From the NCBI GenBank assembly GCA_965116825.1, contig OZ220736.1:1186057-1250056 (forward strand): a DNA stretch of 64,000 nucleotides. Reading direction: 5' to 3'. The notes under the pieces were generated by a model. It had not been told where the DNA came from and ran no database searches. It saw nothing but the letters and a program-made list of their open reading frames with translations. The position numbers and the translations under genes were made by a program. Source of the DNA: Vicinamibacterales bacterium. Lineage in GTDB: Bacteria > Acidobacteriota > Vicinamibacteria > Vicinamibacterales > UBA8438. Shown here piece after piece: positions 5,467 through 57,739 of the stretch (position 1 is its first letter; each line of letters begins with the position of its first letter).

Positions 5467-5615
5467 CAACCGGCGCGGGCCGCGAGAGCTGCGACAGACA
5501 GGCCGCGAATCGGCACGCGCGGGACGGGATTTCGTTGCCGGCGGCGTTGCGGATGGTATCGTGGGCCTGAACGTCGAGAGTGGCTAGCGCTCCCGCCGGG
5601 AGCCGAGGAGGATCG

Positions 5616-6929: not shown

Positions 6930-7533
6930 GAGTCTGCGCCGTGGCGGTGGGCGCGCGGTTGCCGGGTGCACACCGGTGAGGCTGGCGGGCGCGCTGACCG
7001 GGGCGATCCTGCTGGCCGGCACGGTCGCCGAGGCGCAGCAGGCTGCCTCGCCCTCCGGCCTCGGGCGCGCTCCGACCGCGGCGGAACGGGCCGACCGCAT
7101 CGTCGGCCCCGACGGCGCGGAGCTGCCGCCGGGCAGCGGCACCCCCGCCCAGGGGGAGATGGTGTTCGGCCGGCGCGGGTGCTCGACCTGCCACGGCCCG
7201 ACCGGCAGCGAGGGACCGTCCATTCAGCTCGTCGGCGGTGACGTCACGACGCGCACCAACTACTGGCCGATCCGGCACTGGCCGTTCGCGCCGAGCGTCT
7301 GGGACTACATCCGCCGGGTCATGCCCTACGACCGCCCCGGCGTCCTCACCGACAACGAGGCCTACGCGGTGACCGCGTACCTGCTCTACCGCAACGGCAT
7401 CATCGGCGAGGACGACGTCATGGACGCCGAGAGCCTGCCGCGGGTCAGGATGCCGCGGCGCGACGACTACGTCATGCCCGGCGAGTGGACGCCCGATACG
7501 CGGCGCGGGTTCGAGATTCCGCCGGCCCGCTAG
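6916..7533 (+). CDS. monohaem cytochrome c partner subunit (SorB/SoxD-like)
   Basis: Overlaps the SorA-like stop. Signal peptide, haem motif CSTCHG, and conserved YIRRVMPYDRPGVLTDNEAYAVTAYLL. Confidence 0.8.
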   Translation: MFTGRSLRRGGGRAVAGCTPVRLAGALTGAILLAGTVAEAQQAASPSGLGRAPTAAERADRIVGPDGAELPPGSGTPAQGEMVFGRRGCSTCHGPTGSEGPSIQLVGGDVTTRTNYWPIRHWPFAPSVWDYIRRVMPYDRPGVLTDNEAYAVTAYLLYRNGIIGEDDVMDAESLPRVRMPRRDDYVMPGEWTPDTRRGFEIPPAR

Positions 7534-13979: not shown

Positions 13980-14358
13980 GTCGCCTCCGTCGCCTCCGTC
14001 GCCTCCCGTCATACCGGCAGGCTACCACGCCGTTCTCCAGCGCGCCGGCCGAACGTGACCTGGCGAGTTCCGGTTACCCACGTCCCTCGGCCGCCGGTCA
14101 CCCCCGCTCCTCCCGCCGCATCCGGGCGGATGCTTCCGGCGGGCTGGGATCCGATTCCGCCGGTCAACGGGGGACGTGCTGTTCAGCCGGTTGCTTCACC
14201 TGGCTGCTGAAGCTGCGGGTGCCGTCTGGCGCTTCCGATTCTATCGCTTTCGGACGCTGCTGCTGCCGGGCATGGTTGTTGTTCCCGTGTATCGGCTATC
14301 ATCCTGCCCACGCGACCTCGGTCGGCGCCTTCGACCGGGCCGCGCGGGCAGAGCAGGC

Positions 14359-15489
14359 ATGACGAATCACCAACCTCTTGATCGCGTCGAGATCCGCCGG
14401 TTTCGCGGATTGTCGGAACTCGATCTCGACGGACTGGGAAGGTTCAACGTCCTGCTCGGCGCCAACGACGTCGGCAAGACGTCCGTTCTGGAGGCCCTGT
14501 TTCTCCTAACCGGCTTCGCCAATCCGGGGCTCCCGTTGCAGCTTCAGCGCGGGCGCCACCTGCCTATTCGCAAGCTCGAAGACCTCGAGGCGTTGTTTCA
14601 TCAGCTCGATCCCGATCGGCCGATCGATCTCGTGGCCCATTCTGCTGGCACCGTCGCGCGCCGGTCTCTCCACATTTCTGTTCCGTACACGGAACTCTCC
14701 CTCGACTCGGATCCCCCGGAATTGCCCGACAGCTCCACTGCCGCTGCCGCCGGTTCCGCGACCGTCGGTACAGCTCCAGGCCAGTCGTCTTCCCTCACCT
14801 CGCCCCGTAGGCGTCTTCTTCGGTACGACGTCACGCTGCATCCTCGTGACGGAGATCCCGAGTCGCTTTCAGCCCTGTTGCGTTTCGAGCCTGAAGGCGT
14901 CCAAGTCAAGCATTCTGCAAAGCCGATCGACGAGGTTACGCTCTCGGCCCGCTACATCACGCCTGCGGTCGCCGCCGATGCGACCGCGATCGGCGAGCTG
15001 ATCGTCGGCAAGAACGTCGCCCCTCTCCTCGAGTTTCTGCGGGTCATCAATCCCCGTGTCACGGACCTTGCTGTCAGTGGCGACCTCGTGTATCTCGACA
15101 TTGGTCTTGACCGTCTGGTGCCGTTGAACCTGTTCGGTAGTGCCATGGTGCGCGCCGCCACCATCCTTTCTCACTGCATCCTGGGCAACGAACGCATCCT
15201 CCTCCTCGATGAGCTGGAGAACGGCTTGCACCATGCAGCCGTGCGGCCACTGCTGGAGACTCTCCTGGCCCTGGCTCGTGATCACGACATGCAGATCTTC
15301 GTCACGACTCACAGCGAGGCGGTCCTTCAGAGTCTCTTGGACCTCCTGCGGGCCGATGGGTCTTCGGACCATCGTTCGACAACGCATTGCTACGCGCTCC
15401 AGCGCGATCGCGAAGGGCATGTTCGTCCGTATCGCTACGAGTACGCGCAGTTCGAGCACTGCGTACGGCACGGCATCGAGATCCGATGA
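14359..15489 (+). CDS. ABC/AAA_21-type ATPase of a two-gene OLD-like module
   Basis: ATG at 14359. N-terminal IRRFRGL..., Walker A GANDVGKTS, Walker B ILLLDELENGLH, then FVTTHS. The region is visibly less GC-rich than its surroundings. Confidence 0.8.
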   Translation: MTNHQPLDRVEIRRFRGLSELDLDGLGRFNVLLGANDVGKTSVLEALFLLTGFANPGLPLQLQRGRHLPIRKLEDLEALFHQLDPDRPIDLVAHSAGTVARRSLHISVPYTELSLDSDPPELPDSSTAAAAGSATVGTAPGQSSSLTSPRRRLLRYDVTLHPRDGDPESLSALLRFEPEGVQVKHSAKPIDEVTLSARYITPAVAADATAIGELIVGKNVAPLLEFLRVINPRVTDLAVSGDLVYLDIGLDRLVPLNLFGSAMVRAATILSHCILGNERILLLDELENGLHHAAVRPLLETLLALARDHDMQIFVTTHSEAVLQSLLDLLRADGSSDHRSTTHCYALQRDREGHVRPYRYEYAQFEHCVRHGIEIR

Positions 15490-16181
15490 GCTGGGCGTTG
15501 TTCGTCGAAGGCCTCTGGGACGAATTCTTCATCCGCTGTCTCTTGCAGCGCCTGGGCGTCGAGGACGTCACCGTCGGGCATATTGGCGGTGGCGTGTCGG
15601 CCCTCCACATGGTTGCTCAGCAGATTCGCCGGCGCCGCGCCGACGGCATGCGCGTGGCGCTGATTCTGGATGCCGACACCAGTGCCAAACGGACCGGCGA
15701 AGACCTGGCGAGGGAACTGCGTCGCCTCGAGCTGCAGGTCGAGCGCTCATTCTTGTTGCCCGACGACAGGACGGAGGGCAAGCTCGAGACCCTCCTCGAG
15801 CGGATGGCGCACCCGTCGCATCGAGTCGTGTACCGCTGTTTTGATGCCTATGTCGAGTGCCTCCACAATGCCGATCGCACCTACTCGACGCCGGATTCCA
15901 AGGCCCGCCTCTACGCGTACTGCCATGCTCTGGGCGCAGAGCTCCAGGCCAGCAAAGATTACGACGATCCCGCGCATTGGGACCACGACCAAGAGAAGTA
16001 CATTGGTCATTGGGTCTGGAACAAGAGGGGGTCGCTCCGTGACCCTCTCACCGGTCGTCGTCGTTACTACGAGAAGCCCGAGGACGAGTGGCGCGTTGTC
16101 GACGACGAAGGGCTTCGCATTGTTCCGCAGGACCCTTGGGACCAGGTCCGCAGTCGCCGCGCTGCTGTTCGCGCCGTCTGA
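15486..16181 (+). CDS. Toprim-like protein (DUF3226/DUF4276/AriB-like) with a serine-recombinase-derived C-terminal tail
   Basis: ATGA overlap with the ATPase stop. LFVEG (acidic E8) plus ILDAD (DxD) form a Toprim signature, and LPDDRTEGKLETLL follows. The last about 60 aa (KYIGHWVWNKR...DPLTGRRRYYEKPEDEWRVVDDEGLRIVPQDPWDQVRSRR) look like the recombinase domain of a large serine recombinase. Confidence 0.65.
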   Translation: MSWALFVEGLWDEFFIRCLLQRLGVEDVTVGHIGGGVSALHMVAQQIRRRRADGMRVALILDADTSAKRTGEDLARELRRLELQVERSFLLPDDRTEGKLETLLERMAHPSHRVVYRCFDAYVECLHNADRTYSTPDSKARLYAYCHALGAELQASKDYDDPAHWDHDQEKYIGHWVWNKRGSLRDPLTGRRRYYEKPEDEWRVVDDEGLRIVPQDPWDQVRSRRAAVRAV

Positions 16182-33655: not shown

Positions 33656-34315
33656 TCAGGCTTGCGAGGCTTCCACCGGCCGCGGGCAGGAGACGCCGGT
33701 CCCGCCGAGGCCGCAATAGCCGCCGGGGTTCTTGGCCAGATATTGCTGGTGGTACTCCTCGGCGTGGTAGAAGAGCGGCAACATGCGGATTTCCGTCGTG
33801 ATCGGGCCGTAGCCGGCCGCGGTCAGGCCCGGCTGGTACGCGTCCCGCGACGCCTCGACCGCCCGTTGCTGCTCCGCTGCGTCCACGAGCACCACGGAGC
33901 GGTACTGGGTGCCGACGTCGTTGCCCTGCCGCATCCCCTGGGTCGGGTCATGGCTCTCCCAGAAGACCTGCAAGAGGCGTTCGAAGTCGATGACGCGCGG
34001 GTCGTACACGACGAGCACCACCTCGGAATGGCCCGTGCCGCCGCTGCACACCTCTTCGTACGTCGGGTTCTTCGTGTATCCGCCGGCATAGCCGACAGCG
34101 GTCGAGTAGACGCCGTCGAGCTCCCAGAACGTCCGCTCGGCGCCCCAGAAGCAACCCATACCGAACACCGCCTTGCGGGTCCCCTCCGGGAACGGCGGGC
34201 CGATCGGGCGCCCGTGCACGAAGTGCCCCGCGGGCACCGACAGCGGCGCGGCGCGGCCGGGCAGCGCCTCCGCCGCGGTGGGCATCCGCAGACTGGCCGG
34301 ATTGGCGAACAGCAT
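33656..34315 (-). CDS. msrA: peptide-methionine (S)-S-oxide reductase
   Basis: GCFWGAE active-site motif, 219 aa. A GAGGAGG RBS is preceded by an 8-bp hairpin (34330-34350). Confidence 0.9.
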
Positions 34316-34582: not shown

Positions 34583-35092
34583 TCACGCATCCTCCCCTGC
34601 GAGGTCACTCAGGTCCCGCCGGTCGATCTCCCGGTCGAGTCTCCGCTTCTGGTCCAGGAGCTGCTCGCGCGGCATCACCGGCGCCTCGACGCCCCGAACC
34701 TTCACGGTGACGGACGCCGTGGGGTCGATGGCCGCGTCCCGCCACGACCCCGTGGCCGCCTCCCTGAACCGGGCGGCTTCCGTGATGCAGACGTCGATCG
34801 TCACCCCGTCGAAGGACAGCGACAGGGCGACGCGGTCCCAGACATCTTCACGCCGGCGCCAGGGATAGTCGACGACGTGCTCCGCCGCGCCCCGCAACAG
34901 AGCGGGCACGTGCTCGGCCGCGATGAACAACTCCACGCTGCGGATCGGCCGCGCGGCGCCGTACGCGGCGGCGGCGACGTCGCCCGTCAACTGGAAGGGG
35001 ATGGCGCATTCGTCGAGCAGCCCGCACACCCAGCGCAGCGCCGCGGCCGGCACTTCCCCACTCGCCGCTCCCCTGCTCGCCGCCTCGGTCAC
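34583..35092 (-). CDS. NTase-fold-like protein with degenerate catalytic motif, coupled to the macro-domain gene
   Basis: GTG at 35092 overlaps the macro gene stop (GTGA). [33 protein letters not shown] aligns by eye with the adenylyltransferase-like core, but the DxD is replaced by VEL. Confidence 0.45.
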
Positions 35093-35622
35093 GCGGATTC
35101 TCCATGCGCGCAAGTGGCAAGTGCACGCTCGAACGCCGCCCGGATTCGCGGCTCGAAGCAGACGAAGTCGACGCGCTCGACGGATGGAGCGCCGGCCAGG
35201 GCCTGGACCACCGTCCGCACGGCGACCGCCGCCGCCTGTTCCGGCGGGTATCCGTAGATACCGCAACTGATGGCAGCGAAGGCGATGGTGCGCAGCCCGT
35301 GCTCGCGCGCCAGCTCGATCGCCCGCCGGTAGCAGCCGGCAAGCTGCTCCGGCTCACCCTTCGACCCGCCGCGCCAGACCGGTCCGACGGCGTGAATCAC
35401 GTGGCGTGCCGGAAGGTCGTACCCGGCGGTTATCCTCGCGTCACCGGTGGAGCACCCGCCCAGCGTCCGGCACTCGGCCAGGAGTCCGGAGCCCGCGGCG
35501 CGGTGAATCGCGCCGTCCACGCCGCCGCCACCGAGCAGGCTCGCGTTGGCCGCATTGACGATGGCGTCGACGCGCAGCGTCGTGATGTCGGCGGTGGTGA
35601 CGCGCAGGCGCTCGCTGGACAT
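35089..35622 (-). CDS. macro-domain protein (O-acetyl-ADP-ribose deacetylase, YmdB-like)
   Basis: [36 protein letters not shown] is the canonical macro-domain core. Confidence 0.9.
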
Positions 35623-35636
35623 GGGAAACGCGCCGG

Positions 35637-35665
35637 TTCACGCGGATTCGCGCAACGGGTAGTAT
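35637..35665 (+). promoter_or_regulatory. sigma70-like promoter candidate for the SelW-like gene
   Basis: TTCACG-17 nt-TAGTAT, ending 23 nt upstream of the ATG at 35688. An AAGGAG RBS lies at 35674-35679. Confidence 0.35.
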
Positions 35666-35687
35666 ACGGAGACAAGGAGTCGAGCCG

Positions 35688-35918
35688 ATGAAGCTGTCGA
35701 TCACGTACTGCACCCGTTGAAAGTACCTGCCCAGGGCCTCCAGTCTGGCGGCCGAGATCAAGAGCGCGCTCGGTCTGGAAACCGAGCTGATCGAGGGCAC
35801 CAACGGGATATTCGACGTCGTCGCGGACGGCAGGATGATCTTCTCGAAGCACGCCGAGCAGCGGTTTCCGGAATCGGAGGAGATCATCGGCGCCCTGCGC
35901 GCGCTGAACGCCGCATGA
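35688..35918 (+). CDS. SelW/Rdx-family selenoprotein (CxxU), in-frame TGA at 35718-35720
   Basis: ATG with AAGGAG upstream. MKLSITYCTR-TGA-KYLPRASSLAAEIKSALGLETELIEGTNGIFDVVADGRMIFSKHAEQRFPESEEIIGALRALNAA matches the Rdx pattern (YCxxC/U...RA..La.el...G.FeV.vdG.lifSk...grFP). It is absent from the ORF track because of the TGA. Confidence 0.75.
35735..35753 (+). promoter_or_regulatory. candidate bacterial SECIS hairpin
   Basis: Starts 14 nt after the TGA. GGCC-U-CCA-GUC-UGG-C-GGCC: a 4-bp plus 3-bp stem with a 1x1 mismatch and GU in the loop. An alternative CCAG/CUGG pairing exists. Not folded computationally. Confidence 0.4.
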
Positions 35919-36013
35919 ACGCGTCGCCGGCGCCGGAACCATCGCCCCGGCCGCAGGCCTCGGGCTCACACCGGGCATCCGGTTCGGTCGTGCGTCTCAC
36001 GGAGGGAGGACCC

Positions 36014-37222
36014 ATGGCGAGAACAGTCACCCGTCGGGATATCCTGACCGGCGCGGCAGGCGCCATCGGCGCCGCCACGCTTGCGCCGGTCGGCCAGCGC
36101 GTGCACGCGCAGGACACCACGAAGGCGCCGGGGGGGCCGGCGAGCGCACTCGGCGCACGCTCACCGCACGAGCCGCTGGCGCGCGGCAGGGTCACCGGCC
36201 TCTCTTCGCGGACGCCGCTGCAGGATCTGCACGGCATGATCACGCCGTCGGACCTCCACTTCGAGCGGCACCACGGCGGCGTGCCGGAGATCGACCCCGA
36301 CGACTACCGGCTCCTGATCCACGGCCTGGTCGAGCGGCCGACGATTCTCACCCTCGCCGAGCTGAAGCGGTTCCCCGCCACGTCGCGGGTCTGCTTCCTG
36401 GAATGCTCGGGCAACTATCCCACCGGGGCCGGACCGGAGACGAGGCCAGAGTTGGTCTGCGGCATGACGTCCACCACCGAGTGGACCGGCGTGTCGCTCG
36501 CCACGCTGTTCCGCGAGGTCGGCGCGCGCCCCGGCGCAACGTGGTTCCTGGCCGAGGGACAGGACGCCGCGGTGATGACGCGCAGCGTCCCGATGGAGAA
36601 GGCCTGGGACGACGCCATGATCGCCTACGCCCAGAACGGCGAGGCGCTGCGGCCGTCGCAGGGCTACCCGGCGCGGCTCCTGTTGCCGGGCTGGGAGGGC
36701 AACTCCAACGTCAAGTGGCTGCGCCGCCTCGAGCTGGCCGACGCCCCGTTCATGACGCGCGAGGAGACCTCGAAGTACACCGACCCGCTCGCCGACGGCA
36801 CGGCCCGGCAGTTCAGCTTCGTCTTCGACGCCCGTTCGATCATCACCTCGCCGGCCTACCCCGACGTGGTCGAGCCGGGCTGGATCGAGCTCCGCGGCGT
36901 CGCCTGGTCCGGGCGGGGCACCATCGCGCAGGTGGACGTCAGCACCGACGGCGGCCGGACCTGGCAGGCGGCGCGCCTGCAGGAGCCCGTGCTGCGGCAG
37001 GCGCACACCCGCTTCCGGCACCTGTGGCGCTGGGACGGCTCCGAGACCGAGATCATGAGCCGGGCCACCGACGACAGCGGCTACGTCCAGCCGACCCGCG
37101 CCGCGCTGCGCGCCGTCCGCGGCCGCCGGGCGCGCCGGTATCACCTCAACCCCATCACCGCCTGGCGCATCCAGCCGAACGGGCAGGTCTACTACCGGGA
37201 GGAGCCGCCGTGGGACGCGTAA
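36014..37222 (+). CDS. second sulfite dehydrogenase-like molybdopterin oxidoreductase (SorA-like paralog), Tat-exported
   Basis: GGAGGGAGGA before the ATG at 36014. Tat signal TRRDILTGAAGAIGAATLAP and Moco-Cys motif FLECSGN. Collinear with the 5616-6929 product. Confidence 0.85.
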   Translation: MARTVTRRDILTGAAGAIGAATLAPVGQRVHAQDTTKAPGGPASALGARSPHEPLARGRVTGLSSRTPLQDLHGMITPSDLHFERHHGGVPEIDPDDYRLLIHGLVERPTILTLAELKRFPATSRVCFLECSGNYPTGAGPETRPELVCGMTSTTEWTGVSLATLFREVGARPGATWFLAEGQDAAVMTRSVPMEKAWDDAMIAYAQNGEALRPSQGYPARLLLPGWEGNSNVKWLRRLELADAPFMTREETSKYTDPLADGTARQFSFVFDARSIITSPAYPDVVEPGWIELRGVAWSGRGTIAQVDVSTDGGRTWQAARLQEPVLRQAHTRFRHLWRWDGSETEIMSRATDDSGYVQPTRAALRAVRGRRARRYHLNPITAWRIQPNGQVYYREEPPWDA

Positions 37223-37836
37223 CGCTGCCTCGCGCCTGCACGCCGCGCCTCCTCGTCGCGCTCGCCCTGGCCGCCGCCGGTCTCGCGCTCGCGGCGCCTG
37301 CCGCGGCACAGAATGCCGGCGGTGACGGCGCGGAAACGATGCCCGAGTCGTTCGGTATCGGGCGGGCGGCCACCCCGGAAGAGATCGCCGCCTGGGACAT
37401 CGACGTCATGCCCGACGGCACCGGCCTGCCGGAGGGGGAGGGCACGGCGACGAGCGGCGCCCCGATCTACGGCCGGCAGTGCGCCGTGTGCCACGGGGCC
37501 GCCGGAGAAGGAGGCATCGCCGACCGGCTCGTCGGCTACACGCCGGAGACCACGCCGCCGTTCGGGCCGCGCTACGAGGAGTGGCGCGGCGACGGCCCCG
37601 ACGTGCCGTACTCCGTGGGCAACTACTGGCCCTACGCCACGACGCTCTTCGACTACATCCGCCGCGCGATGCCGTCGAACGCGCCGGGCACGCTGGAGGC
37701 CGACCAGGTCTACGGCCTCGTCGCCTGGATCCTGGCCGAGAACGGCCTCATCGGGGCCGACGAAGCGATGAACGCCACGACGCTGCCGGCAGTCGAGATG
37801 CCGGCCCGCGACGTCTTCGTCCCACAGGAACGCTGA
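37210..37836 (+). CDS. second monohaem cytochrome c partner (SorB-like paralog)
   Basis: GTG at 37210 overlaps the SorA-like end. Signal peptide, CAVCHG, and YIRRAMPSNAPGTLEADQVYGLVAWIL parallel to the 6916-7533 product. Confidence 0.8.
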   Translation: MGRVTLPRACTPRLLVALALAAAGLALAAPAAAQNAGGDGAETMPESFGIGRAATPEEIAAWDIDVMPDGTGLPEGEGTATSGAPIYGRQCAVCHGAAGEGGIADRLVGYTPETTPPFGPRYEEWRGDGPDVPYSVGNYWPYATTLFDYIRRAMPSNAPGTLEADQVYGLVAWILAENGLIGADEAMNATTLPAVEMPARDVFVPQER

Positions 37837-41976: not shown

Positions 41977-42759
41977 TCATGAGTCCCGGGTCTCCGTTCG
42001 GGTCGACGGTCGGCTTCGTTTCCGCATCGAGTCTCCTTTCAGGTCGAGCTTGTACGCATTGTGCACGAGACGGTCGAGGATCGCGTCGGCGAGCGTCGGG
42101 TCGCCGACGATGTCATGCCACTTGTCGACGGGAACCTGGCTGGTCACGACCGTCGAGCGGACGCCGTGGCGGTCCTCGAGGACTTCGAGCAGGTCGTGGC
42201 GGTTCTCCGCGTTGAATGGGGCCAGCCCCCAGTCATCCATCACCAGCACCTCGGTCTTGGCGAGCGATTCGAGCAGCTTCGGGTAGCGCCCGTCGGCGCG
42301 CGCAATGGCCAGGGCGCTCAGCAGCCGGGACACGCGGACATACAACGCGCTGTGTCCGTTGCGGCAGGCGCTGTGGGCGAGCGCGCATCCTATCCAGCTT
42401 TTTCCGATGCCGGTCGGGCCGCAGATCAGGACGTTGAGATGCTCGCGGACCCAGCGCCCGTCGGCGAGCGAGAGGACGAGCTGCTTGTCGAGCCCGCGAC
42501 GGTGACGGAAGTCGATGTCCTCGATGCAGGCGTCGTGCTTCAGCTTGGCGCGCCGCAGTCGGTTGGTGAGCTGTCGGGAGTAACGCTCGGTAAGCTCGCG
42601 GTCGACGAGCAGACCGAGCCGTTCCTCGAACGAGAGGGCTTCGACCTCGGACGAGTCGAACTGCTCGGCGAGAGCCTTGGCCATCCCGGCGCATCGTAGC
42701 TGTTGGAGCTTCTCGACGGTCGGATGAGTCAGCATCTGGGCGTTCCTTTCAGCAATCAC
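41977..42759 (-). CDS. istB: IS21 helper ATPase IstB
   Basis: 260 aa. Walker A GPTGIGKSW and Walker B LLVMDDWG. Start overlaps the istA stop. Confidence 0.9.
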   Translation of the reverse strand: MIAERNAQMLTHPTVEKLQQLRCAGMAKALAEQFDSSEVEALSFEERLGLLVDRELTERYSRQLTNRLRRAKLKHDACIEDIDFRHRRGLDKQLVLSLADGRWVREHLNVLICGPTGIGKSWIGCALAHSACRNGHSALYVRVSRLLSALAIARADGRYPKLLESLAKTEVLVMDDWGLAPFNAENRHDLLEVLEDRHGVRSTVVTSQVPVDKWHDIVGDPTLADAILDRLVHNAYKLDLKGDSMRKRSRPSTRTETRDS

Positions 42760-44276
42760 TGGTAGTAGAGGGCGCCGCGGATGTTGTCGTGCTCGACCGG
42801 GTCGGCGCGGTCGAATTGCTCGGCGGACGTCTCGTCGAGTCGGTGCTTGAGGATCGATTCAACGCTGCGGTAGCTGTAGCTGCCGATGGCCAGCGCCCGT
42901 GTGGCGGCCGCTTCCAGGCGGGCGTCGCCGTGGCACTTGGCCAGACGCAGGAGACCGAGGCAGGAACGGTAGGCCTGCTGTGGGTGACGCCGCGAATTGA
43001 GGACGGCGGTGATCAGGGCGGCGGTCGACGGCCCGATCTTCTCGGCCAAGCGGATGAAGCAGTCCGGGGTCCATTCGCCCATCTGGCGGTGCTTCTCGGG
43101 CATGTGCTCGGTCGCGGTGGTGTGACGCCCCTTGTGCGAGGAACGGACGTGGCTGGCAACGCGCTGGCTGCGATGAAAGCACTCGACGGTGCGGGCGGTC
43201 AGTCGGACGTCGAGCTGGCGCCCGACCAGCGCGTGTGGAACCGAGTAGTAGTGGCGGTCGATTTCCACGTGGTAGTCGATGTGTACGCGCACGGTCTTCC
43301 ACTCGGCGAAGACGTACCGGCTGGAGGGCAGCGGGCGCAGGGCCGGCCGGTCGAGCTGCTCGAACTGCGAGCGCCGCGACCCCGGGAGCTTGCGGAACGG
43401 GCGCGTGTTGAGCCGGTCGAGCAGCTTGGAGACCGCGGCGTTGAGCTCGGCCAGCGAGAAGAACCTGCGATGGCGAAGCGCGGCGAGTATCCACCGCTCG
43501 ACGATTTGAACGGCGACCTCCGCCTTCGCCTTGTCCCTTGGGCGACGCACCCGCGCGGGCAGCACCGCCACGCCGTAGTGGGAGGCGAGGTCGTGATAGG
43601 TCGGATTCAGGTCAGGCTCGTAGCGATGGGCGCCGCTGACTCCCGAGCGCAGGTTGTCTGGGATCACGAGCTCGGGACAACCGCCGCAGAACTCGAAGGC
43701 TCGTACGTGCGAGGCCGTCCAGTCCGGCAGGGTCTGCGTCCAGGTGGCCTCGGCGAAGGTGTAGCTCGAGGCGCCGAGCACGGCCACGAAGACCTGCGCT
43801 TGACGCTCCTCGCCGGTCTCGGGGTCGACCACCGGCACCGTCTGCCCGGCGTAGTCGATGAACAGCTTCTCGCCGGCGCGGTGCTCCTGGCGCATCACCA
43901 GGTCGAGCTTTCCAGCCCATTCCCGGTACTGCTCGCAGAACCGGCTGTACTGCAACCCCTCGGGATGGATCGCCTTGTACTCTTCCCAGAGCAAGGCCAG
44001 CGTTACGTTCTTGCCCCGCAGCTCCCGGCGCACCTCGCTCCAGTCCGGCAGCGGACGCGACGTGTGGCTCGACGGGAGCGCCGGAAACAGCCGGCGCTCC
44101 AGCCCGGCGTCGTCGATCGCCTCGGGTAGCGGCCAACTCACCCCCGCCACCTTGGCGCGGCGCAGGTACTCGCCCACCGTCGACGGCGATGTCCCCAGGC
44201 TGCGGGCAATCGCCCGAATGCTCAACGCCGCGGCGAAGTACAGCCGCAGCACCTCTCGAATCTTCCGCATGGACAA
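42756..44276 (-). CDS. istA: IS21 transposase IstA
   Basis: 506 aa. N-terminal HTH (RKIREVLRLYF...SIRAIARSLG) and a DDE core (FIDYAGQTV...). Confidence 0.9.
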   Translation of the reverse strand: MSMRKIREVLRLYFAAALSIRAIARSLGTSPSTVGEYLRRAKVAGVSWPLPEAIDDAGLERRLFPALPSSHTSRPLPDWSEVRRELRGKNVTLALLWEEYKAIHPEGLQYSRFCEQYREWAGKLDLVMRQEHRAGEKLFIDYAGQTVPVVDPETGEERQAQVFVAVLGASSYTFAEATWTQTLPDWTASHVRAFEFCGGCPELVIPDNLRSGVSGAHRYEPDLNPTYHDLASHYGVAVLPARVRRPRDKAKAEVAVQIVERWILAALRHRRFFSLAELNAAVSKLLDRLNTRPFRKLPGSRRSQFEQLDRPALRPLPSSRYVFAEWKTVRVHIDYHVEIDRHYYSVPHALVGRQLDVRLTARTVECFHRSQRVASHVRSSHKGRHTTATEHMPEKHRQMGEWTPDCFIRLAEKIGPSTAALITAVLNSRRHPQQAYRSCLGLLRLAKCHGDARLEAAATRALAIGSYSYRSVESILKHRLDETSAEQFDRADPVEHDNIRGALYYQ

Positions 44277-44366
44277 CCTCCTGTTCGCCAGCTTCTATCC
44301 CTCCTGCAAAAGCAGGGAGGATCCCACGCCGGCGGGGTTGTCCCGCGTCGCTCAGCCCCGACTCAG

Positions 44367-44447
44367 GGTGATCGGTTTCGACCGGAATCGGTGATCGCTT
44401 TGGATCGGAATCAGTGATCGGTTTCGGCCGGAATCGGTGATCGGTTT
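44367..44447 (+). repeat. four subterminal direct repeats of the IS21 element (istA-proximal end)
   Basis: GGTGATCGGTTT-like units at 44367, 44390, 44413 and 44436, with 23-bp spacing. They are inverted relative to the 41867-41951 set. Confidence 0.85.
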
Positions 44448-44462
44448 GCCCCGGAATCCGCA

Positions 44463-45262
44463 TGCAGCCGGTCGACGTCGACTCGCTGCGCCTGGTCCGC
44501 CCCCGCAGCGTCGGCGTCGAGCAGGTCGGCCTGTGGGCCCTGGAGCAATTGGGCCTGCCGGCCCTGCTGGCCGAGTTGGGCGTCAACGGCGCGTTGCGCA
44601 CCGCGGCGGCCGGCGCCATCGTCGGGCGTCTGGCCCAGCCGGCCTCGGAGCGCGCGACGCACCGCTGGCTGCAAACCCGCAGCGGCCTCGGCGAGTTGCT
44701 CGGCGTCGACTTCGAGACCGTCAGCCCGATGCAGCTCTACCGCGCCTCGGATGCGCTGGTGAAGCATCGCGAGGCGATCGAGGCGCATCTGTTCGAGCGG
44801 GCCATGGGCCTGTTCGACCTGCAGCCGACCGTCACCCTCTACGACCTGACCAACACCTACTTCGAAGGCGAGGCGGGCGCGCAACCGCAGGCAAAGCGCG
44901 GACACTCGAAAGAGAAGCGCAGCGACTGTCCGCTGCTGACCCTGGGCCTGATGCTCGACGCCAGCGGCTTCGTGCGACGCTCGCAGGTCTTCGCCGGCAA
45001 CGTCCGGGAACACCGCACGCTGGCCGGCATGCTGGAGGCACTCGATGCACCGGCCGGCGCCCTGGTGGTCATGGACCGCGGCGTCGCCACCGAGGCCGCC
45101 ATCGGGTGGCTGCGCGACAACCGCTACCGCTATCTGGTCGTCAGCCGCGAACGCCACCGGCAGTTCGACGCCGAGACCGCCGTGTCGATCCAGACCCGAT
45201 CCAAACAGACCGTGCATCTGCACAAGGTCGTCTCGACCGACCCCGGCGAGGTCCGCCTGTAC
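44463..45262 (+). pseudogene. IS1634-family transposase fragment 2 (middle)
   Basis: ...LYDLTNTYFEGEAGAQPQAKRGHSKEKRSDCPLLTLGLMLD...VVMDRGVATE... is DDE transposase core sequence. Terminated by the IS3 insertion (the TGA is the first three bases of the IS3 IRL). Confidence 0.8.
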
Positions 45263-45322
45263 TGAAGTTGCCCCAGTTCCGCGGACACTTATCCTCTTGG
45301 CGAGGAGGAGGAGGAGTCCACG

Positions 45323-45631
45323 ATGCCGAAGTCGAGACCGCCGTACGCGGCGGCATTCCGACAGCAGATGGTCGAGCTGGTTCAGTCCGGACGTACACCG
45401 GGAGACCTCGCTCGGGAGTTCGAGCCGTCGGCCGAGGCGATACGAAACTGGGTCGCGCAGGCTGATCGCGACGCGGGCAAGCGCTCCGACGGCCTGCGCA
45501 CCGAAGAACATGAGGAGATTCGTCGGCTGCGCCGGGAGAACCGGCGGTTGCGCGAAGAACGCGAAATTTTGGCAAAAGCCACGGCCTGGTTCGCGCGGGA
45601 GACCGGATCCGGGAGGTCTACCGGTTCATGA
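45323..45631 (+). CDS. IS3 transposase OrfA (HTH)
   Basis: 102 aa with HTH and leucine zipper (EEIRRLRRENRRLREEREIL). A slippery A-AAA-G lies in GCAAAAGCC at about 45570. Confidence 0.85.
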   Translation: MPKSRPPYAAAFRQQMVELVQSGRTPGDLAREFEPSAEAIRNWVAQADRDAGKRSDGLRTEEHEEIRRLRRENRRLREEREILAKATAWFARETGSGRSTGS

Positions 45632-46581
45632 GCACGAACCAGGCTCGTTTTCGCGTCGCCACGATGGCCCGCGTGCTCGGTGTCTCCACGAGCGGGTACT
45701 ACGCGTGGCGTCAACGTCCACCGTCAGCTCGTGCGCAGGCCGATGCGGAGCTGACGGCCCGCGTGCAGGAGATTCATGCCGGCAGCCGGGGCACGTACGG
45801 CGCGCCGCGGATTCACGCCGAACTGGTCGAAGCCGGTGCCGCGGTCGGCCGCAAGCGGGTCGCGCGGGTGATGCGCGAGGCCGGCATCGCTGGGGTGAGC
45901 CGGCGCCGCGGCCCCCGCACGACGCGCCGAGAGGTGCAAGCGCGGCCGGCCCCGGACCGGGTCGAGCGGTGCTTCGAGGCCGACGCGCCGAACCGCCTGT
46001 GGGTGGCCGATATCACCTACATTCCGACCTTGGCAGGCTTCCTCTACTTGGCCATCGTTCTGGACGTTTTCAGTCGGCGGGTGGTCGGCTGGGCCATGGC
46101 TGCGCACCTGCGCACGGAGCTGGTGGTCGAGGCGCTGGAGATGGCCGTGGCGCAACGCCGGCCCGAGGCGGTCATCCATCATTCCGACCAGGGCTGCCAG
46201 TACACGTCGCTGGCCTTCGGAGCCCGCTGCCGTGAATCAGGCGTGGCGCTGTCGATGGGTTCGGTGGGAGATTGCTTCGACAACGCGATGGCGGAGAGCT
46301 TTTTCGCGACGCTCGAGTGCGAGCTGCTGGCCCGCACGAGCTTGTCCACGCACGCCGAGGCGCGGGCGGCGGTTTTTGATTTCGTCGAGGGCTGGTACAA
46401 CACGCGGCGCCGCCATTCGGCGTTGGGCTACGTGTCGCCGCTGGAGTTCGAACGTCTCCATGCGGCAGAAACTGTGGACGGGGCCCGGCCGGTGAAGGCT
46501 CTGCAGGCGCCCACGAGTCAGGTGGAGCTCGGATTGCCGGTGACGACTCACGCCGTCACCGGCCTTGCTGCGGGGGCTTGA
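45628..46581 (+). CDS. IS3 transposase OrfB (DDE integrase core), -1 frame relative to OrfA
   Basis: ADITYIPT, HSDQGCQYTS and DNAMAESFFATLE form the DDE triad context. The -1 frame stays open upstream to the slippery site (SHGLVRAGDRIREVYRF-MSTNQARFRV...). Confidence 0.85.
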   Translation: MSTNQARFRVATMARVLGVSTSGYYAWRQRPPSARAQADAELTARVQEIHAGSRGTYGAPRIHAELVEAGAAVGRKRVARVMREAGIAGVSRRRGPRTTRREVQARPAPDRVERCFEADAPNRLWVADITYIPTLAGFLYLAIVLDVFSRRVVGWAMAAHLRTELVVEALEMAVAQRRPEAVIHHSDQGCQYTSLAFGARCRESGVALSMGSVGDCFDNAMAESFFATLECELLARTSLSTHAEARAAVFDFVEGWYNTRRRHSALGYVSPLEFERLHAAETVDGARPVKALQAPTSQVELGLPVTTHAVTGLAAGA

Positions 46582-46973
46582 GGCCGGTTACGTAACGGTG
46601 CGTAGTTGACTTGGAAACCCACGGAGGAAATGGTGATCAACAGAGTACACGGCTCGCCTTCGGCTTCGCGAGACGAACCGCTGTTGCGGGTCGTGTGCCG
46701 CATCCACGGGGGCGCTGTGGAAGTGCCCGGTCTGGGGACGCCCGGTCAACGTCCTGCTGAATCTGAAGGTCGGCGAGGCGGGCGCCCCCAGCCCGTTGGA
46801 AATCTCGCGGGCGATCGTCGCCGATCACGCCCTGCACCGGGGCCGCGAGATTCCCACACTCCCACAGCGGTTGTCGTCGATGACTGACACGGAAACGACG
46901 TTCATCGGAGAATGTGTCATGATGTGAGCCCGCAAGCATTAACCCGTCCACGGGATCGGGGCAACCTCAGTAC

Positions 46974-47672
46974 TGCTACTCCGAAGAGCGAGCCCACAAG
47001 GAGCGGGCCATCGTCGAGCGGGCCGCCGACCGCTTCGAGGCCGCCCTGACCACGCTCAACGACGGGCTGGCGCGCCCCCGCGCCCACAAGCGCCTCGGAC
47101 AGGTCTGGCAGCGCATCGGGCGACTGAAAGCCAAGCATACCCGCGTCGCCGCGCACTACCAGATCGAGGTCACCCCCGACCAGACCGGTGAGAAGGCCGC
47201 CGCCGTCACCTGGACCCGCCGTCCCCAGGACGGCTCGATGGCCACCCATCCGGGCGTCTATTGCCTGCGCAGCAGCGAGACCGACTGGGACGAAGACGCC
47301 TTGTGGCGCACCTACACCACCCTCACCGATGTCGAGGCCGTCTTTCGCGCCCTGAAGTCCGAACTCGGACTGCGCCCCATCTACCACCACAAGCCGCGGC
47401 GGGCCGACGGCCACCTGTTCATCACCGTCATCGCCTACCAGCTCGTGCAGGTCATCCGCACCCGGCTGCAAGCTCACGGCGAACACGCCAGTTGGACCAC
47501 GCTGCGCCGCATCCTCGAAGGCCAGCAGCGCGTCACCGCCACCTTCCGGCGCCCCGACCGACGCACCCTGCACGTGCGCACCGCCACGCAAGCCGAACCC
47601 GGACAGCGGGCCATCTACGACGCGCTCGGCGTCGACCCGCAGCCGGGAGGCGTTCGCAAGACGACCATCTGA
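46974..47672 (+). pseudogene. IS1634-family transposase fragment 3 (C-terminus)
   Basis: CYSEERAHKERAIVERAADRFE...YTTLTDVEAVFRALKSELGLRPIYHHKPRRADGHLFITVIAYQLV... Its frame is consistent with fragment 2 after removal of the IS3 and one TSD. Confidence 0.8.
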
Positions 47673-47976
47673 CCGACCCATTTCCGGTTTGCGCGCGTTT
47701 GTAGTGCCACTCGAGCATTCTTGCCGGCGTAAACTGCTGATTCTGCAATGGCTTAGTAATACCGCTGTTAAACTTGGGCTAACGAGGCTCGAAGCGACGG
47801 CCAGCCTTGATCCTGTGAGCGCGGACGTGACGCGGGCCACCACGAAGTCGTTGTGGCAGCCATCACGAGCAATGTCGAGCGACTGCTCGTCGGCGATCAC
47901 CGGATCGCGATGTAGCGTGTGGTGGGTTGACCGAAATGTGAAAGTGTCGATGGGACTCTGAGGCTCGTCGCGCGCA

Positions 47977-48492
47977 TCACCCAGTTCCTGTAGCTCCAGA
48001 CAGGGGAGCGTTCTCTCGAACCACCGGGAAGCGTGGAGCGCCCCAACCGTGGTCCGGGTGCTTGATCATCAGGTCGATGAAGTGCGGCACCAGAGACGCC
48101 ATGATTCTCGCACCGGTCTCGACTTGCGCCCGGTTCACCGTACTCGCCCAAGTCGCACCGCCGTGAAGTAGTTGGTTGCGCAGCGTGTACAGGCGACCGA
48201 ACAGCTTGGGAAGGACATCCTTGGTCTGTCGCTCGTTGATCGCCTGCTTCGCCGTTTCCCGATCCTTGTCGAACCTGTTCTCCCAGTCCAGTTCTTCCGC
48301 CGGGTTGTGGCGATGTTTCCAGTACCGCCAGTACACGTACCTGTTCTCCAGGATCCTTTTGACCTTGGCCCTTCCCCGCCACAGAGTGGCATCGACTACG
48401 CTGTTCGAATCGACAAGAATGCCTATTCTGTCGAGATAGTCACCCCACATTTCCCACTCTTTCTTCTCCAGAGAAGTCCCCCGCTGCCCGTA
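47977..48492 (-). pseudogene. C-terminal part of an Rx4H (HEPN-like) protein gene split by the ISAzo13 insertion
   Basis: Contains LYTLRNQLLHGGATW (R-x4-H). The frame continues upstream of the listed Met to the insertion point (YGQRGTSLEKKEWEMWGDYL...). Clearly lower GC than the background. Confidence 0.55.
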
Positions 48493-48525
48493 AGGGCCGG
48501 CGCAAGAATAACTTCCGTTTTTTCG

Positions 48526-49440
48526 TTACATGGGTTCGATGGTGTAGTTCCATTTGGGCATTGAGCTGTCGGGTGTAATGCGCAACTCCCGCATCTGGGC
48601 GTCGGTGACCTTGATGCCGGTCTTGTAGGTCTTTCGGACCAGGTGCGCGCGCACGCGCAGCCCGGTGGCGGTGCGTGTGGTGCGCAGGTACTTCAGGATG
48701 GTCTCGTAGCTGTCCAGCGGGCGGCCCGCCCAGTTCTTGGTGACCTCGCAGAACAGGCGGTGTTCGATTGGATTCCACTTCGAAGTGGCCGGCGGGTAGT
48801 GGGCCACGGTCACGCGCAAGCCGTGCCGGTTGCAGAGGCGGTGCTGCAGGTTGAATTTCCAGGCGCGCGCCGTGCAACTGTTGCTGCCGCCGCCGTCGGC
48901 CAGGATCTGCAACGCGTTGGCCTCGGGATAGTGCTTGCAGCCCTCGGTGCGCCACCATTTCTCGATGCAGTCGACGGCGAACGCCGGGGTGTCGGCGGTC
49001 TGGCCGACGAAGATGGTGCCGGCGTTGGCCCGCGGGTCGTAGATGCCGTAGGGGACGGCGAGTCCCTCAGCGTCTGAGCGGAAGTCGTGGTCCTTGACCC
49101 GTTCGGGACTGCGGTCCCACTTGGCGCCGGGATTGCGGAACGTGCCGACGAGTTCCTTCTTCTTGGTGTCGACGCTGATGACCGGGACGTTGTCGGCGGC
49201 GCAACGCTCGCGCAGTTCGGTGATGTTCCGAAACTGGTCGTCGCGCCTCGGATGCGAGGCCCCGGCGAGCTTCTTGTGGTTGACGCGCAACGAATAGCCC
49301 ATCGCCTTGAGCAGTCGCGCGACCGTCTGCGGGCAGACGTCGATGCCGAGCGCGCACAGTTCATCGGCGACCTTGGCGGTCGTACGGCGTGTCCACTTCA
49401 GGCCCCTGACCGGGTCGCCGGCCGTCTCGTGTTCCATCAA
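48526..49440 (-). CDS. ISAzo13-family transposase, C-terminal (DDE) part
   Basis: LMEHETAGDPVRGLKWTRRTT...ISVDTKKKELVG...ILADGGGSNS...HYPPATSKWNPIEHRLF is the characteristic ISAzo13/Rhodopirellula-type DDE transposase. It is joined to the N-part by a -1 shift at an A8 run. Confidence 0.85.
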   Translation of the reverse strand: MMEHETAGDPVRGLKWTRRTTAKVADELCALGIDVCPQTVARLLKAMGYSLRVNHKKLAGASHPRRDDQFRNITELRERCAADNVPVISVDTKKKELVGTFRNPGAKWDRSPERVKDHDFRSDAEGLAVPYGIYDPRANAGTIFVGQTADTPAFAVDCIEKWWRTEGCKHYPEANALQILADGGGSNSCTARAWKFNLQHRLCNRHGLRVTVAHYPPATSKWNPIEHRLFCEVTKNWAGRPLDSYETILKYLRTTRTATGLRVRAHLVRKTYKTGIKVTDAQMRELRITPDSSMPKWNYTIEPM

Positions 49441-55699: not shown

Positions 55700-57178
55700 T
55701 CAGTCGACATCCAGCAGATCGCGCACGGCCAGCGCGTACGGCGCCGCGTCGACCCCGTGCGCGCGGGCGGCCGCCGTCTGCGCGGCTAGCGTGGCGACGG
55801 CGCGATCCCGAAACGCGGGGTCGGCCGTGATGGTCGCCAATCTCAGGAGGATGCGCGCCGCCTCGCAGTTGACGGCGAACGGTCGCAGGGGCTCCCGCAA
55901 CAGGCCGATGTCCTCCGGGCCGTGAACGCGGTCGCGGAAGCCGCCGCCTCCGCTCGCGCCCCACAGGTGCTGGATTGCGAAGTGCATCAGCTCCTGGGCC
56001 ATGTCGAGATAGACCTCGCGGCCGGTCAGCTCGTGGAGATCGAGCAGCGCCGCGGCGGCCCGGACCTGGTCGGAGAGCAGGCCCCGGACGCCGGTGCGGG
56101 AGCCGGCCCGGTGGGCGATCCCGCCGCCGCGCTCGTAGGTCCCCGCCACGACGTGCTCCATCGCGTCGACGGCGAACTCCAGCAGCGACGAGTCCCGCAG
56201 GGTCTCCGACGCGGCGGCGAACGCGCGGGCCATCAGGGCGGTGCCGTCGGCGTAGACGGCGCGGTCGACAGGGGGCGGCCCGGCGGCGGGTGCATCTGCC
56301 TCCGTCCGCGGCCGGTAGTAGTCCGGGTCGCCCCGCTGGCTGGCGAAGAACCCGGGATGGTCCGGCGCCAGGTCGGCCAGCGTGCGCCGCACGTAGCCGA
56401 CCACGCCGATGGCCCGGTCGAGGCAGCCGTCGTCGTCGGGCAGCAGGAAGAGGCGGAGCGCCTCGGCATTGACGGCGAGCAGCTTCTCCGTCGCCGGCTC
56501 GGTCCAGTCGCGGCGCGCGCAGTAGCGGAACACGCCGCCGTCGAGCTCGTCGTAGAGCCCGCCCCAGGCCATGGCCCGGAGCGTGCGTTCGACCACCGCG
56601 CCGAACGCCTCGTCACCGTCGCCGGCCCGGCGCCACGCCAGCTCGAGGGCGGCGGCGTGGACCCGCTTCGCCCCGGCGCCGAAGCCGCCGTGCTCCTCGT
56701 CGAACTGCGCGAGCAGACACTCGCCCACCCAGGCGTCGACGCCGGAATCCGGCGCGGCGGCCGCCGGAACGGCAGGTTGTGCGGCAGGCGCGGCGCCGCG
56801 CGCGACGATCGCGTCCCGCTGCTGCTCGAACGCGTCGGCCACGCGCGGCAGCAGGTCCCGCATCCGCTCCGTCGTCGCGTAGGTCTCCCCGCCCAGAACC
56901 TGACCGTCCGGAGTCAGGAACGCGGTCGTCGGCCATCCACCGAGGCCGTAGCGGTCTGCGATGTCGGGCCGCTCTTCCGCATCGACGCGGACCGGCACGA
57001 ACCGATCGTCCAGCAGATCGGCGACGCGGGGATCGGCGTACGCCCCGCCCATCATGGACGCGCTGGCGGGGCACCAGCGCGGTCCGAGGGCCAGCAGCAC
57101 CGGGACCTGCCCAACCCGCGCCTCCTCGAAGGCGGCGCGCCCCCACGAACGCCACTCGACGAGGAAGGTTGTCGCCAC
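55700..57178 (-). CDS. thioredoxin-domain (DUF255/YyaL-like) protein with (alpha/alpha)6 C-terminal domain
   Basis: N-terminal WRSWGRAAFEEARVGQVPVLLALGPRWC...RFVPVRVDAEERPDIADRY...GWPTTAFLTPDG. The usual CxxC is degenerate (WCPASAS). Confidence 0.75.
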   Translation of the reverse strand: MATTFLVEWRSWGRAAFEEARVGQVPVLLALGPRWCPASASMMGGAYADPRVADLLDDRFVPVRVDAEERPDIADRYGLGGWPTTAFLTPDGQVLGGETYATTERMRDLLPRVADAFEQQRDAIVARGAAPAAQPAVPAAAAPDSGVDAWVGECLLAQFDEEHGGFGAGAKRVHAAALELAWRRAGDGDEAFGAVVERTLRAMAWGGLYDELDGGVFRYCARRDWTEPATEKLLAVNAEALRLFLLPDDDGCLDRAIGVVGYVRRTLADLAPDHPGFFASQRGDPDYYRPRTEADAPAAGPPPVDRAVYADGTALMARAFAAASETLRDSSLLEFAVDAMEHVVAGTYERGGGIAHRAGSRTGVRGLLSDQVRAAAALLDLHELTGREVYLDMAQELMHFAIQHLWGASGGGGFRDRVHGPEDIGLLREPLRPFAVNCEAARILLRLATITADPAFRDRAVATLAAQTAAARAHGVDAAPYALAVRDLLDVD

Positions 57179-57274: not shown

Positions 57275-57739
57275 CTACTCCTCGGTGATGTCCGCCTGGA
57301 TGTCGAGATCGATGCAGCCGGCCACGCTGTTGGCGGCGGGACACCCGGTCGGGTGCCGCTCGACAGCGCGCTCGGCCGCCTCGCGCTTCCCTTTCGGGAT
57401 CGTGAGGTCGTAGCGGACGCGGATGCGCGTGATGCGCAGCACCTTGTCGATCGCTTCGATGTCGCCTTCGACGGCGGCGGTGATCTTGTCGGGCGGCGCC
57501 GGAATGTCGCGCACCTCCAGTGCGCGTGCAAGGGTGCCGAGCAGTCAACCGCCGACGGCGCCGACCATGTAGTCGAGCGTCGCGGGCACGTCCTCGTCCG
57601 GCTCCACCCCGTAGAACTTCTTGATGCCCCCGTGCACGCCGAACCGGATCGGCGTGTCGAACCCCTCGAGGAACATCTCGCGGATGGGCCCCTTGACCCG
57701 ATCGATCCGCATGCGGCTGGTATGTACGACGTCTGGCAC
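57275..57739 (-). CDS. OsmC-like selenoprotein, in-frame TGA at 57547-57545
   Basis: Track ORFs 57545..57946 and 57275..57514 share one frame separated only by the TGA. The read-through gives ...ATLDYMVGAVGG-U-LLGTLARALEVRDI...ERHPTGCPAANSV, so U falls at the first conserved OsmC Cys and the second Cys is retained. GTG start at 57739 after GGAAGGAG (an ATG at 57712 is the alternative). Confidence 0.7.
57508..57526 (-). promoter_or_regulatory. candidate bacterial SECIS hairpin
   Basis: On the mRNA strand, 18 nt after the UGA: CGCGCAC-UGGAG-GUGCGCG, a 7-bp perfect stem with a 5-nt G-containing loop. Not folded computationally. Confidence 0.45.

Follow-up and report, generated by a model that had tools for sequence, protein, structure and literature searches.

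Does a TGA at the eleventh codon of a conserved reading frame end translation, or is it read as an amino acid? The question is raised by a small frame at positions 35688-35918 on the forward strand of a 64,000-nucleotide stretch of DNA from a Vicinamibacterales bacterium (contig OZ220736.1), the whole of which is referred to here as the window. A first-pass annotation of this DNA had proposed that the frame is a hidden gene for a selenoprotein of the SelW type. Comparison of the frame with its relatives, together with the RNA structure that follows the TGA, makes it highly likely that this is an expressed gene (hereafter rdx) for a 76-residue cytoplasmic SelW-like (Rdx) redox protein, in which selenocysteine (Sec) is inserted at the UGA as residue 11 by the standard bacterial mechanism.

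The reading frame and its protein family

The frame opens with an ATG at 35688, meets the TGA at 35718-35720 (codon 11, the putative Sec codon, U11) and then runs through 65 further sense codons to a TGA stop at 35916-35918, so that the gene has 76 codons including Sec11. All these coordinates agree with those first proposed, and the re-derived read-through translation is identical, letter for letter, to the earlier one. The Shine-Dalgarno sequence AAGGAG, read from the sequence at 35674-35679, does lie upstream of the ATG, with a spacer of 8 nt and not the 9 nt originally given, and its GGAG core is retained in the closest related loci. It had also been claimed that ORF calling missed the gene; indeed, no open reading frame (ORF) of at least 40 amino acids is listed in this frame. 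Inspection of the sequence finds no ATG, GTG or TTG from the TGA at 35718-35720 up to Met50, and thus the conserved downstream frame could not be translated alone and the gene is unrecoverable by an ORF caller. In the rdx frame, the G+C content at third codon positions (GC3) is 0.90 upstream of the TGA and 0.89 downstream (0.88 over the whole gene), compared with 0.77 in the spacer that follows the gene and 0.62-0.72 in the overlapping minus-strand ORFs; the G+C content of the window is 69%.

Profile searches, in which the TGA of the read-through product was replaced by Cys, place the protein in the Rdx (SelW/SelT/SelH) family, as the first-pass annotation had held. In particular, Pfam Rdx (PF10262) matches residues 3-71 of 76 with E=2.2e-18 and 66.7 bits against a cut-off of 22.6, the NCBIfam model TIGR02174 (CXXU_selWTH) gives 49.1 bits against a cut-off of 34.2, and the best-scoring curated model is NF041051 (SelTWH_Campy), with E=9e-24 over residues 4-70. 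The CxxU motif takes the form C8-T-R-[TGA]11, and its first residue, Cys8 (codon TGC, 35709-35711), is Cys in 79 of 79 aligned sequences. Sequence matches in the PDB comprise six bacterial SelW-related proteins, with CTQC opposite CTR[U] (as in 2oka, 3dex and 2fa8). The fold was tested on the AlphaFold model of P0003, a marine Cys homologue with the motif CVPC, which is 67% identical to the window protein and stands for it here. This model has a predicted local distance difference test score (pLDDT) of 92.6 and a beta-alpha-beta-beta-beta-alpha order, with the CxxC located between strand 3-8 and helix 14-28. Its template modelling (TM) scores are 0.86-0.90 against 2fa8, 2ojl, 2oka, 2obk, 3dex and 2p0g, 0.79 against MIEN1 (2ljk), 0.72 against mouse SelW (2npb) and about 0.5 against thioredoxins. 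Every family feature tested is present, with the exception of the Campylobacter-specific equivalog cut-off.

Conservation of the TGA column and of the hairpin behind it

A protein-database search returned 27 relatives, most of which are N-terminally truncated and start just past the TGA column; some sources label them 'selT/selW/selH-like putative selenoprotein'. Two of the 27 show W at this column because the TGA was translated under another code, and one, P0003, has Cys. At the nucleotide level, species-representative genomes were scanned with two peptide patterns located downstream of the TGA, which yielded 80 loci; since both patterns lie downstream, the retrieval was blind to the TGA column itself. 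The full-length tblastn matches in these loci have identities of 54-96%. Most of the loci belong to Vicinamibacterales or other Acidobacteriota, and at least 13 of the 80 come from Myxococcota or other Deltaproteobacteria, Planctomycetota, Burkholderiales and a Candidatus Rariloculus. A TGA stands three codons past the invariant Cys in 78 of the 80 loci, and in none of them is the column occupied by TAA or TAG. The first-pass annotation had put the TGA at the position of the second Cys of the redox motif, and this is borne out by the CTQC of the solved homologues and the TGT of P0003 as well as by the TGA column itself.

The two loci without TGA are one that is cut off (L072) and one with an exact 9-nt in-frame deletion (L009). 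In the latter, from a Vicinamibacterales metagenome-assembled genome (L009:10001-10060, OZ219745.1), the deletion GTTGAAAGT takes out the Sec-TGA, so that R-U-K-Y is reduced to H, while the hairpin is intact; its product is found in the databases as P0001. As far as the sequence goes, this one species seems to have lost the Sec residue, and with it the CxxU motif, recently. The sole Cys form seen among close relatives is the gene of P0003 (L082), in which the Sec column reads TGT. In this locus, on a TARA contig (L082:486-719), the hairpin stem is kept and the loop U is changed to C (Ser AGC, not AGT), an anecdotal observation from a single case.

The gene alignment of 79 sequences (78 loci and the window), all of them distinct, carries the signature of a coding sequence on both sides of the TGA. 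Column entropies at codon positions 1, 2 and 3 are 0.64, 0.62 and 1.07 over codons 1-10, and 0.69, 0.44 and 1.08 over codons 12-70; substitutions relative to the 17 closest loci number 134, 75 and 279 at the three positions. Entropies and substitutions follow the same pattern, which indicates that both halves are under protein-coding selection in one frame. Conservation downstream of the TGA in related genomes, which the first-pass annotation had named as a check on its proposal, is therefore present in the form of coding sequence, and it extends upstream of the TGA too.

The TGA is followed by a hairpin, GGCCUCCAGUCUGGCGGCC, at 35735-35753 on the forward strand, which consists of 4 bp, a 1x1 mismatch and 3 bp, with a minimum free energy (MFE) of -9.5 kcal/mol, and which is of the type of a bacterial selenocysteine insertion sequence (SECIS). 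It starts 14 nt past the TGA and has GU in its loop, in keeping with the original description; the apical loop is GUC at 35743-35745, 22 nt after the TGA, or alternatively AGUCU with an A-U closing pair. According to a 2026 review, the consensus of bacterial SECIS elements includes a loop of 3-9 nt on a stem of 4-16 bp, a G as the first or second nucleotide of the loop, mostly with G or U after it, a distance of 16-37 nt from UGA to loop and an MFE of at most -7.5 kcal/mol (PMC13188914). When compared with this model, the hairpin agrees with it in four constraints out of four (3-nt loop, 7-bp stem, 22 nt, -9.5 kcal/mol).

Its pairing is maintained across the relatives. On the 79-sequence alignment, 89.3% of cells of the helix are paired, compared with 26-48% when the 3' partners are slid, and its covariation score is reached by none of 500 shuffles. 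Compensatory changes occur in three pairs; in particular, C21-G33 becomes U-A in six distinct sequences, and C21 and G33 are both synonymous third positions of Ala codons. Synonymous positions are also unusually quiet, as third-position entropy is 0.28 in the hairpin codons 17-22 versus 1.20 in codons 23-70. The loop takes its G-U from the codon of Ser19, which is AGT in 70 of 70 sequences although AGT accounts for 3.7% of the Ser codons used by the window's genes. The codon of Ser18 is TCC in all 34 cases, and the equally invariant Ser53, by contrast, is encoded by TCG in 39 sequences, TCC in 31 and TCA in 5. In these alignments, the hairpin suppresses synonymous variation and thus imposes a constraint at the RNA level beyond that of the protein. 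The window contains seven copies of the loop-core motif CCRGTYTGG, where 2.2 would be expected; the six outside rdx are not preceded by an in-frame TGA of a coding frame, and no further selenoprotein gene emerges in this way.

Probable selenocysteine insertion and its alternatives

Sec insertion would proceed as follows. Ribosomes would start at the ATG at 35688 by means of the Shine-Dalgarno sequence and meet the UGA ten codons later. The hairpin 14 nt beyond it, embedded in the codons for Arg-Ala-Ser-Ser-Leu-Ala-Ala, would offer its G-U apical loop to SelB·GTP·Sec-tRNA(Sec), whose binding would lead to the delivery of Sec instead of termination by release factor 2 (RF2). The product would adopt a thioredoxin-like fold with Cys8-x-x-Sec11 between strand 1 and helix 1, and Cys8 and Sec11 would most likely cycle between the selenol/thiol and selenenylsulfide states. 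We infer both the incorporation of selenium at the UGA and the redox chemistry of the protein, as well as the presence of SelB and tRNA(Sec) in this genome.

The window itself provides a second candidate selenoprotein gene. An OsmC-like gene on the minus strand (57275-57712) contains an in-frame TGA at 57545-57547, and its read-through product scores 42.7 bits with PF02566 (cut-off 27.5). In the alignment with Thermus thermophilus OsmC (1ukk), this TGA falls on the catalytic Cys, and a stable hairpin with the loop GGA (57508-57526) lies 26 nt downstream of the TGA. The earlier claim of an OsmC-like case in this DNA thus holds for the family, for the catalytic-Cys column and for the hairpin that follows. 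OsmC-like proteins are a documented selenoprotein family (PMC1088965), and Sec users are known among Acidobacteria (PMC1794560); together with the OsmC-like gene, they lend indirect support to Sec decoding here. A thioredoxin-like DUF255 gene (55700-57178) adjoins the OsmC-like gene. TGA is otherwise the commonest ordinary stop in the window, where it ends 25 of 47 ordinary high-GC3 ORFs, and thus the code as a whole is not reassigned.

Several results weigh against Sec insertion at rdx. The score of 83.5 with NF041051 is below the equivalog cut-off of 88, so that the protein is a close relative but no member of that equivalog. As the first-pass annotation had stated, no selA, selB, selC or selD gene was found in the window by the tRNA, family and motif scans: ARAGORN detects no tRNA anywhere in the window, nor any tRNA-Sec in the regions flanking 60 of the related loci; the SelA, SelB and SelD families have no match among the 30 window ORFs scanned, with the low-GC3 stretches at about 58.4-60.9 kb partly covered; and crude six-frame regular expressions for the translational-GTPase G1, SelD N-terminal and SelA PLP motifs find nothing in the window and 1.5 Mb of related loci. 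Likewise, there are no sel genes in 9 kb of extra left flank provided by an ENA metagenome contig identical to the window (L081). A scan of the whole window at Rfam gathering thresholds gives no match. As for the hairpin, its covariation is modest, being limited to three pairs, and the conserved peptide ASSLAA accounts for part of its nucleotide conservation. The folding z-score of a 76-nt segment is +0.35 and that of the 19-nt hairpin -1.9, values not above shuffled controls at this G+C content; the SECIS of Escherichia coli fdhF does no better (z = -1.3). Since z-scores are thus uninformative even for the fdhF SECIS, folding energy is used neither for nor against, and the support for the hairpin comes from conservation in the aligned sequences. 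Finally, RNAalifold on the 79-sequence alignment returns another, weak 3-bp helix (19-32, 20-31, 21-30) with no covariation. This helix was set aside, as the 8-position helix described above has compensatory changes and beats all slid controls.

Other readings of the locus fare worse. The most mundane is that the frame arises by chance in G+C-rich DNA, where long spurious ORFs are frequent, and that the true feature is one of the three ORFs that overlap this stretch (35717-37222 on the plus strand, 35430-35978 and 35441-35887 on the minus strand). Such an origin has a vanishingly small probability given an Rdx match at E=2e-18 and a GC3 of 0.88, against 0.62-0.72 in the minus-strand ORFs; the plus-strand ORF, for its part, is the upstream run-in of a soxC gene whose real start, with a Shine-Dalgarno sequence and a twin-arginine signal, is at 36014. 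A decaying Rdx gene in which a Cys codon was mutated or misread to TGA would require a single base change from TGC or TGT, and the window is a metagenome assembly, in which sequencing or assembly errors come to mind. The TGA column, however, recurs in 78 of 80 independent species-level genomes, with no TAA or TAG and with 79 distinct sequences, and identities of 54-96% indicate that the related loci are not copies of one contaminating sequence. It could also be proposed that translation is confined to the 10-codon ORF, which would yield a leader peptide, while the hairpin would serve as an attenuator or regulator of soxCD and no Rdx product would be made. Indeed, a short ORF is followed by a conserved hairpin, and soxC lies on the same strand with no terminator-like site in between; nevertheless, the 65 codons beyond the TGA change in the manner of coding sequence (entropy 1.08 at third versus 0.44 at second positions), a complete Rdx domain and its predicted fold are retained there, the same arrangement is found in 33 loci without soxC within 10 kb, and the hairpin has no U-tract. 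Purifying selection on both sides of the TGA speaks decisively against a pseudogene, an assembly error or a leader peptide alone, so that we regard decay or error as extremely improbable and a leader peptide as very improbable.

What is left is a different way of decoding the UGA, namely as Cys by a selC*-type tRNA(Cys)UCA that mimics tRNA(Sec) and works with a paralogue of SelB, or by an allo-tRNA acting as an opal suppressor. Both have precedents, as Mukai et al. described selC* tRNA(Cys) with an opal anticodon together with selB* in Deltaproteobacteria, as well as allo-tRNAs in Acidobacteria that are able to act as nonsense suppressors (PMC5389517). On the other side, the hairpin has the geometry of a SelB-dependent SECIS, with a G-U loop and an apical sequence near that of E. 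coli fdhF, and the selC*-type route would itself need a SelB-like factor. Moreover, the TGA column and the same hairpin are present in unrelated phyla, for which ordinary Sec decoding is the simplest common factor, and Sec is regarded as the original form in the SelW-like family (PMC1794560). Alternative decoding is less parsimonious because a SelB-type hairpin is common to several phyla, and it is considered quite improbable here. Sec insertion is thus the reading retained in what follows.

Genomic setting and comparison with known systems

Upstream of rdx, a promoter-like pair of boxes, TTCACG (35637-35642) and TAGTAT (35660-35665), separated by 17 nt on the plus strand, may drive its transcription. 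It is kept in the closest clade (loci L001-L018) and has 8 of 12 consensus matches, which is under the scanner threshold; the consensus scan of 35400-36200 for promoters and terminators reports no site. In other clades (loci L026-L062), a TAGGAT or TACGAT box stands 9-10 nt before the rdx ATG, without a Shine-Dalgarno sequence. Such a -10-like box so close to the start suggests that rdx transcripts may be leaderless in those clades.

Downstream, 95 nt from rdx and on the same strand, lies a gene for a SoxC-type sulfite dehydrogenase with a twin-arginine signal (36014-37222; TIGR04555, 491.8 bits against a cut-off of 420), which contains the Pfam domains Oxidored_molyb and Mo-co_dimer and whose start is preceded by a Shine-Dalgarno sequence. 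Its end overlaps by 13 nt a c-type cytochrome gene on the plus strand (37210-37836), which, as read from this frame, has a signal peptide and the motif CAVCH. The consensus scan finds no terminator-like site between rdx and soxC. On the other side of rdx, in divergent orientation, are genes on the minus strand for a macro-domain O-acetyl-ADP-ribose deacetylase (35089-35622; Pfam Macro, E=9.5e-47; NF001664, 225 bits against 200) and, beyond it, for the methionine sulfoxide reductase MsrA (33656-34315; PF01625, E=4e-61; TIGR00401); the region further upstream of rdx also encodes a HAD hydrolase and a GH65 phosphorylase. A second SoxC-type sulfite dehydrogenase is encoded on the plus strand at 5580-7533 (TIGR04555, 425 bits) and is followed by a cytochrome-c-like ORF, and thus the window holds two paralogous soxCD-like pairs.

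The neighbourhood recurs in part among the relatives. In 43 of the 80 loci, among them a clade in which SoxC is only 67-70% identical, rdx is immediately followed by soxC on the same strand; soxC is not within 10 kb in 33 of the 80, and the adjacency is seen in no phylum outside Acidobacteriota. MsrA, a thiol-redox enzyme, is found again within a few kb upstream of rdx in 27 of the 80. The adjacency of rdx and soxC may reflect inherited synteny or a functional link. A functional tie of the Vicinamibacterales SelW-like protein to the downstream SoxCD could take two forms: soxCD expression could depend on selenium, as the genes would be co-transcribed and translation would pass through the Sec-UGA, or the protein could be a cytoplasmic redox helper for the genes of sulfite and methionine-sulfoxide stress around it, a notion that stems from the recurrence of MsrA nearby. 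Such a tie is an unlikely, tentative proposal; if true, it would provide the first physiological context for a bacterial Rdx protein.

Elsewhere in the window, an insertion-sequence cluster at 41977-49440 comprises IS21-type istA/istB and IS3-like and ISAzo13-like transposases, of which IstB was recognised by Pfam and the others by eye from their translations. A segment of lower GC3 (about 0.7) on the plus strand at 14059-16181, with genes for an AbiEii-like AAA ATPase (AAA_21), a DUF3226 protein and a recombinase fragment, may be a small defence or mobile island that was acquired.

The gene has practical consequences for annotation. Public records of this orthologue group contain either an N-terminally truncated 'Rdx family protein' without the active site or no protein at all, so that a real conserved gene, invisible to standard ORF callers here, calls for correction. 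By the sequence evidence, the soil Vicinamibacterales, an abundant lineage, very probably decode Sec, and for this reason other in-frame TGAs in these genomes are worth screening, such as that of the OsmC-like gene at 57275-57712.

When set beside known systems, the hairpin most closely recalls the SECIS of E. coli fdhF, in which the loop positions G23 and U24 and the bulged U17 have established roles. Both hairpins stand directly past the UGA, have a small apical loop that carries G-U and is closed by an A-U pair, and leave a U unpaired a few nucleotides before the loop on its 5' side; their apical sequences, CAGGUCUG in fdhF and CAGUCUGG here, resemble each other. Here the loop has 1 nt less and its distance from the UGA is 3 nt greater; the unpaired position, 22, varies among relatives (U, A or G) and is paired in some. 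Mammalian SelW (2npb) and MIEN1 (2ljk) share with the window protein the Rdx family and the thioredoxin-like fold, and SelW also the CxxU motif. Their structural match is weaker (TM 0.72-0.79), and the signal here is a hairpin of the bacterial type within the coding region, whereas eukaryotic SelW relies on a SECIS in the 3'-untranslated region together with SBP2 and eEFSec. The solved Cys-containing SelW-related proteins of bacteria (2fa8, which is Atu0228, 2oka, 2obk, 2ojl, 3dex and 2p0g) agree in the fold, as judged through P0003, and in the position of the motif; they differ in their length of about 100 amino acids, in having Cys for Sec and in a sequence identity of 21-33%.

The closest counterparts are the bacterial SelW-like selenoproteins, a family recognised for twenty years. 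In the Sargasso Sea survey they outnumbered every other selenoprotein family, with 48 Sec forms versus 7 Cys forms (PMC1088965), and SelW-like CXXU selenoproteins are also known from completed bacterial genomes, with Sec considered the original form (PMC1088965, PMC1794560). The first-pass annotation had relied on SelW-like proteins being a documented bacterial selenoprotein family with Cys homologues, a point that both the literature (PMC1088965, PMC1794560) and P0003 uphold. Like these proteins, the window protein has about 75 amino acids, a CxxU near the N-terminus and rare Cys forms (PMC1088965, PMC1794560), and its Sec-UGA has directly behind it a hairpin that lies within the coding region and carries G in the apical loop. 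There is no difference in kind, and what sets this orthologue group apart is that it is found mainly in metagenome-assembled genomes of soil Vicinamibacterales, often before soxCD. Collectively, the locus is a new, unannotated member whose family, motif and recoding mechanism are textbook for bacterial selenoproteins, with the frequent adjacency of rdx and soxCD as the only mildly new element.

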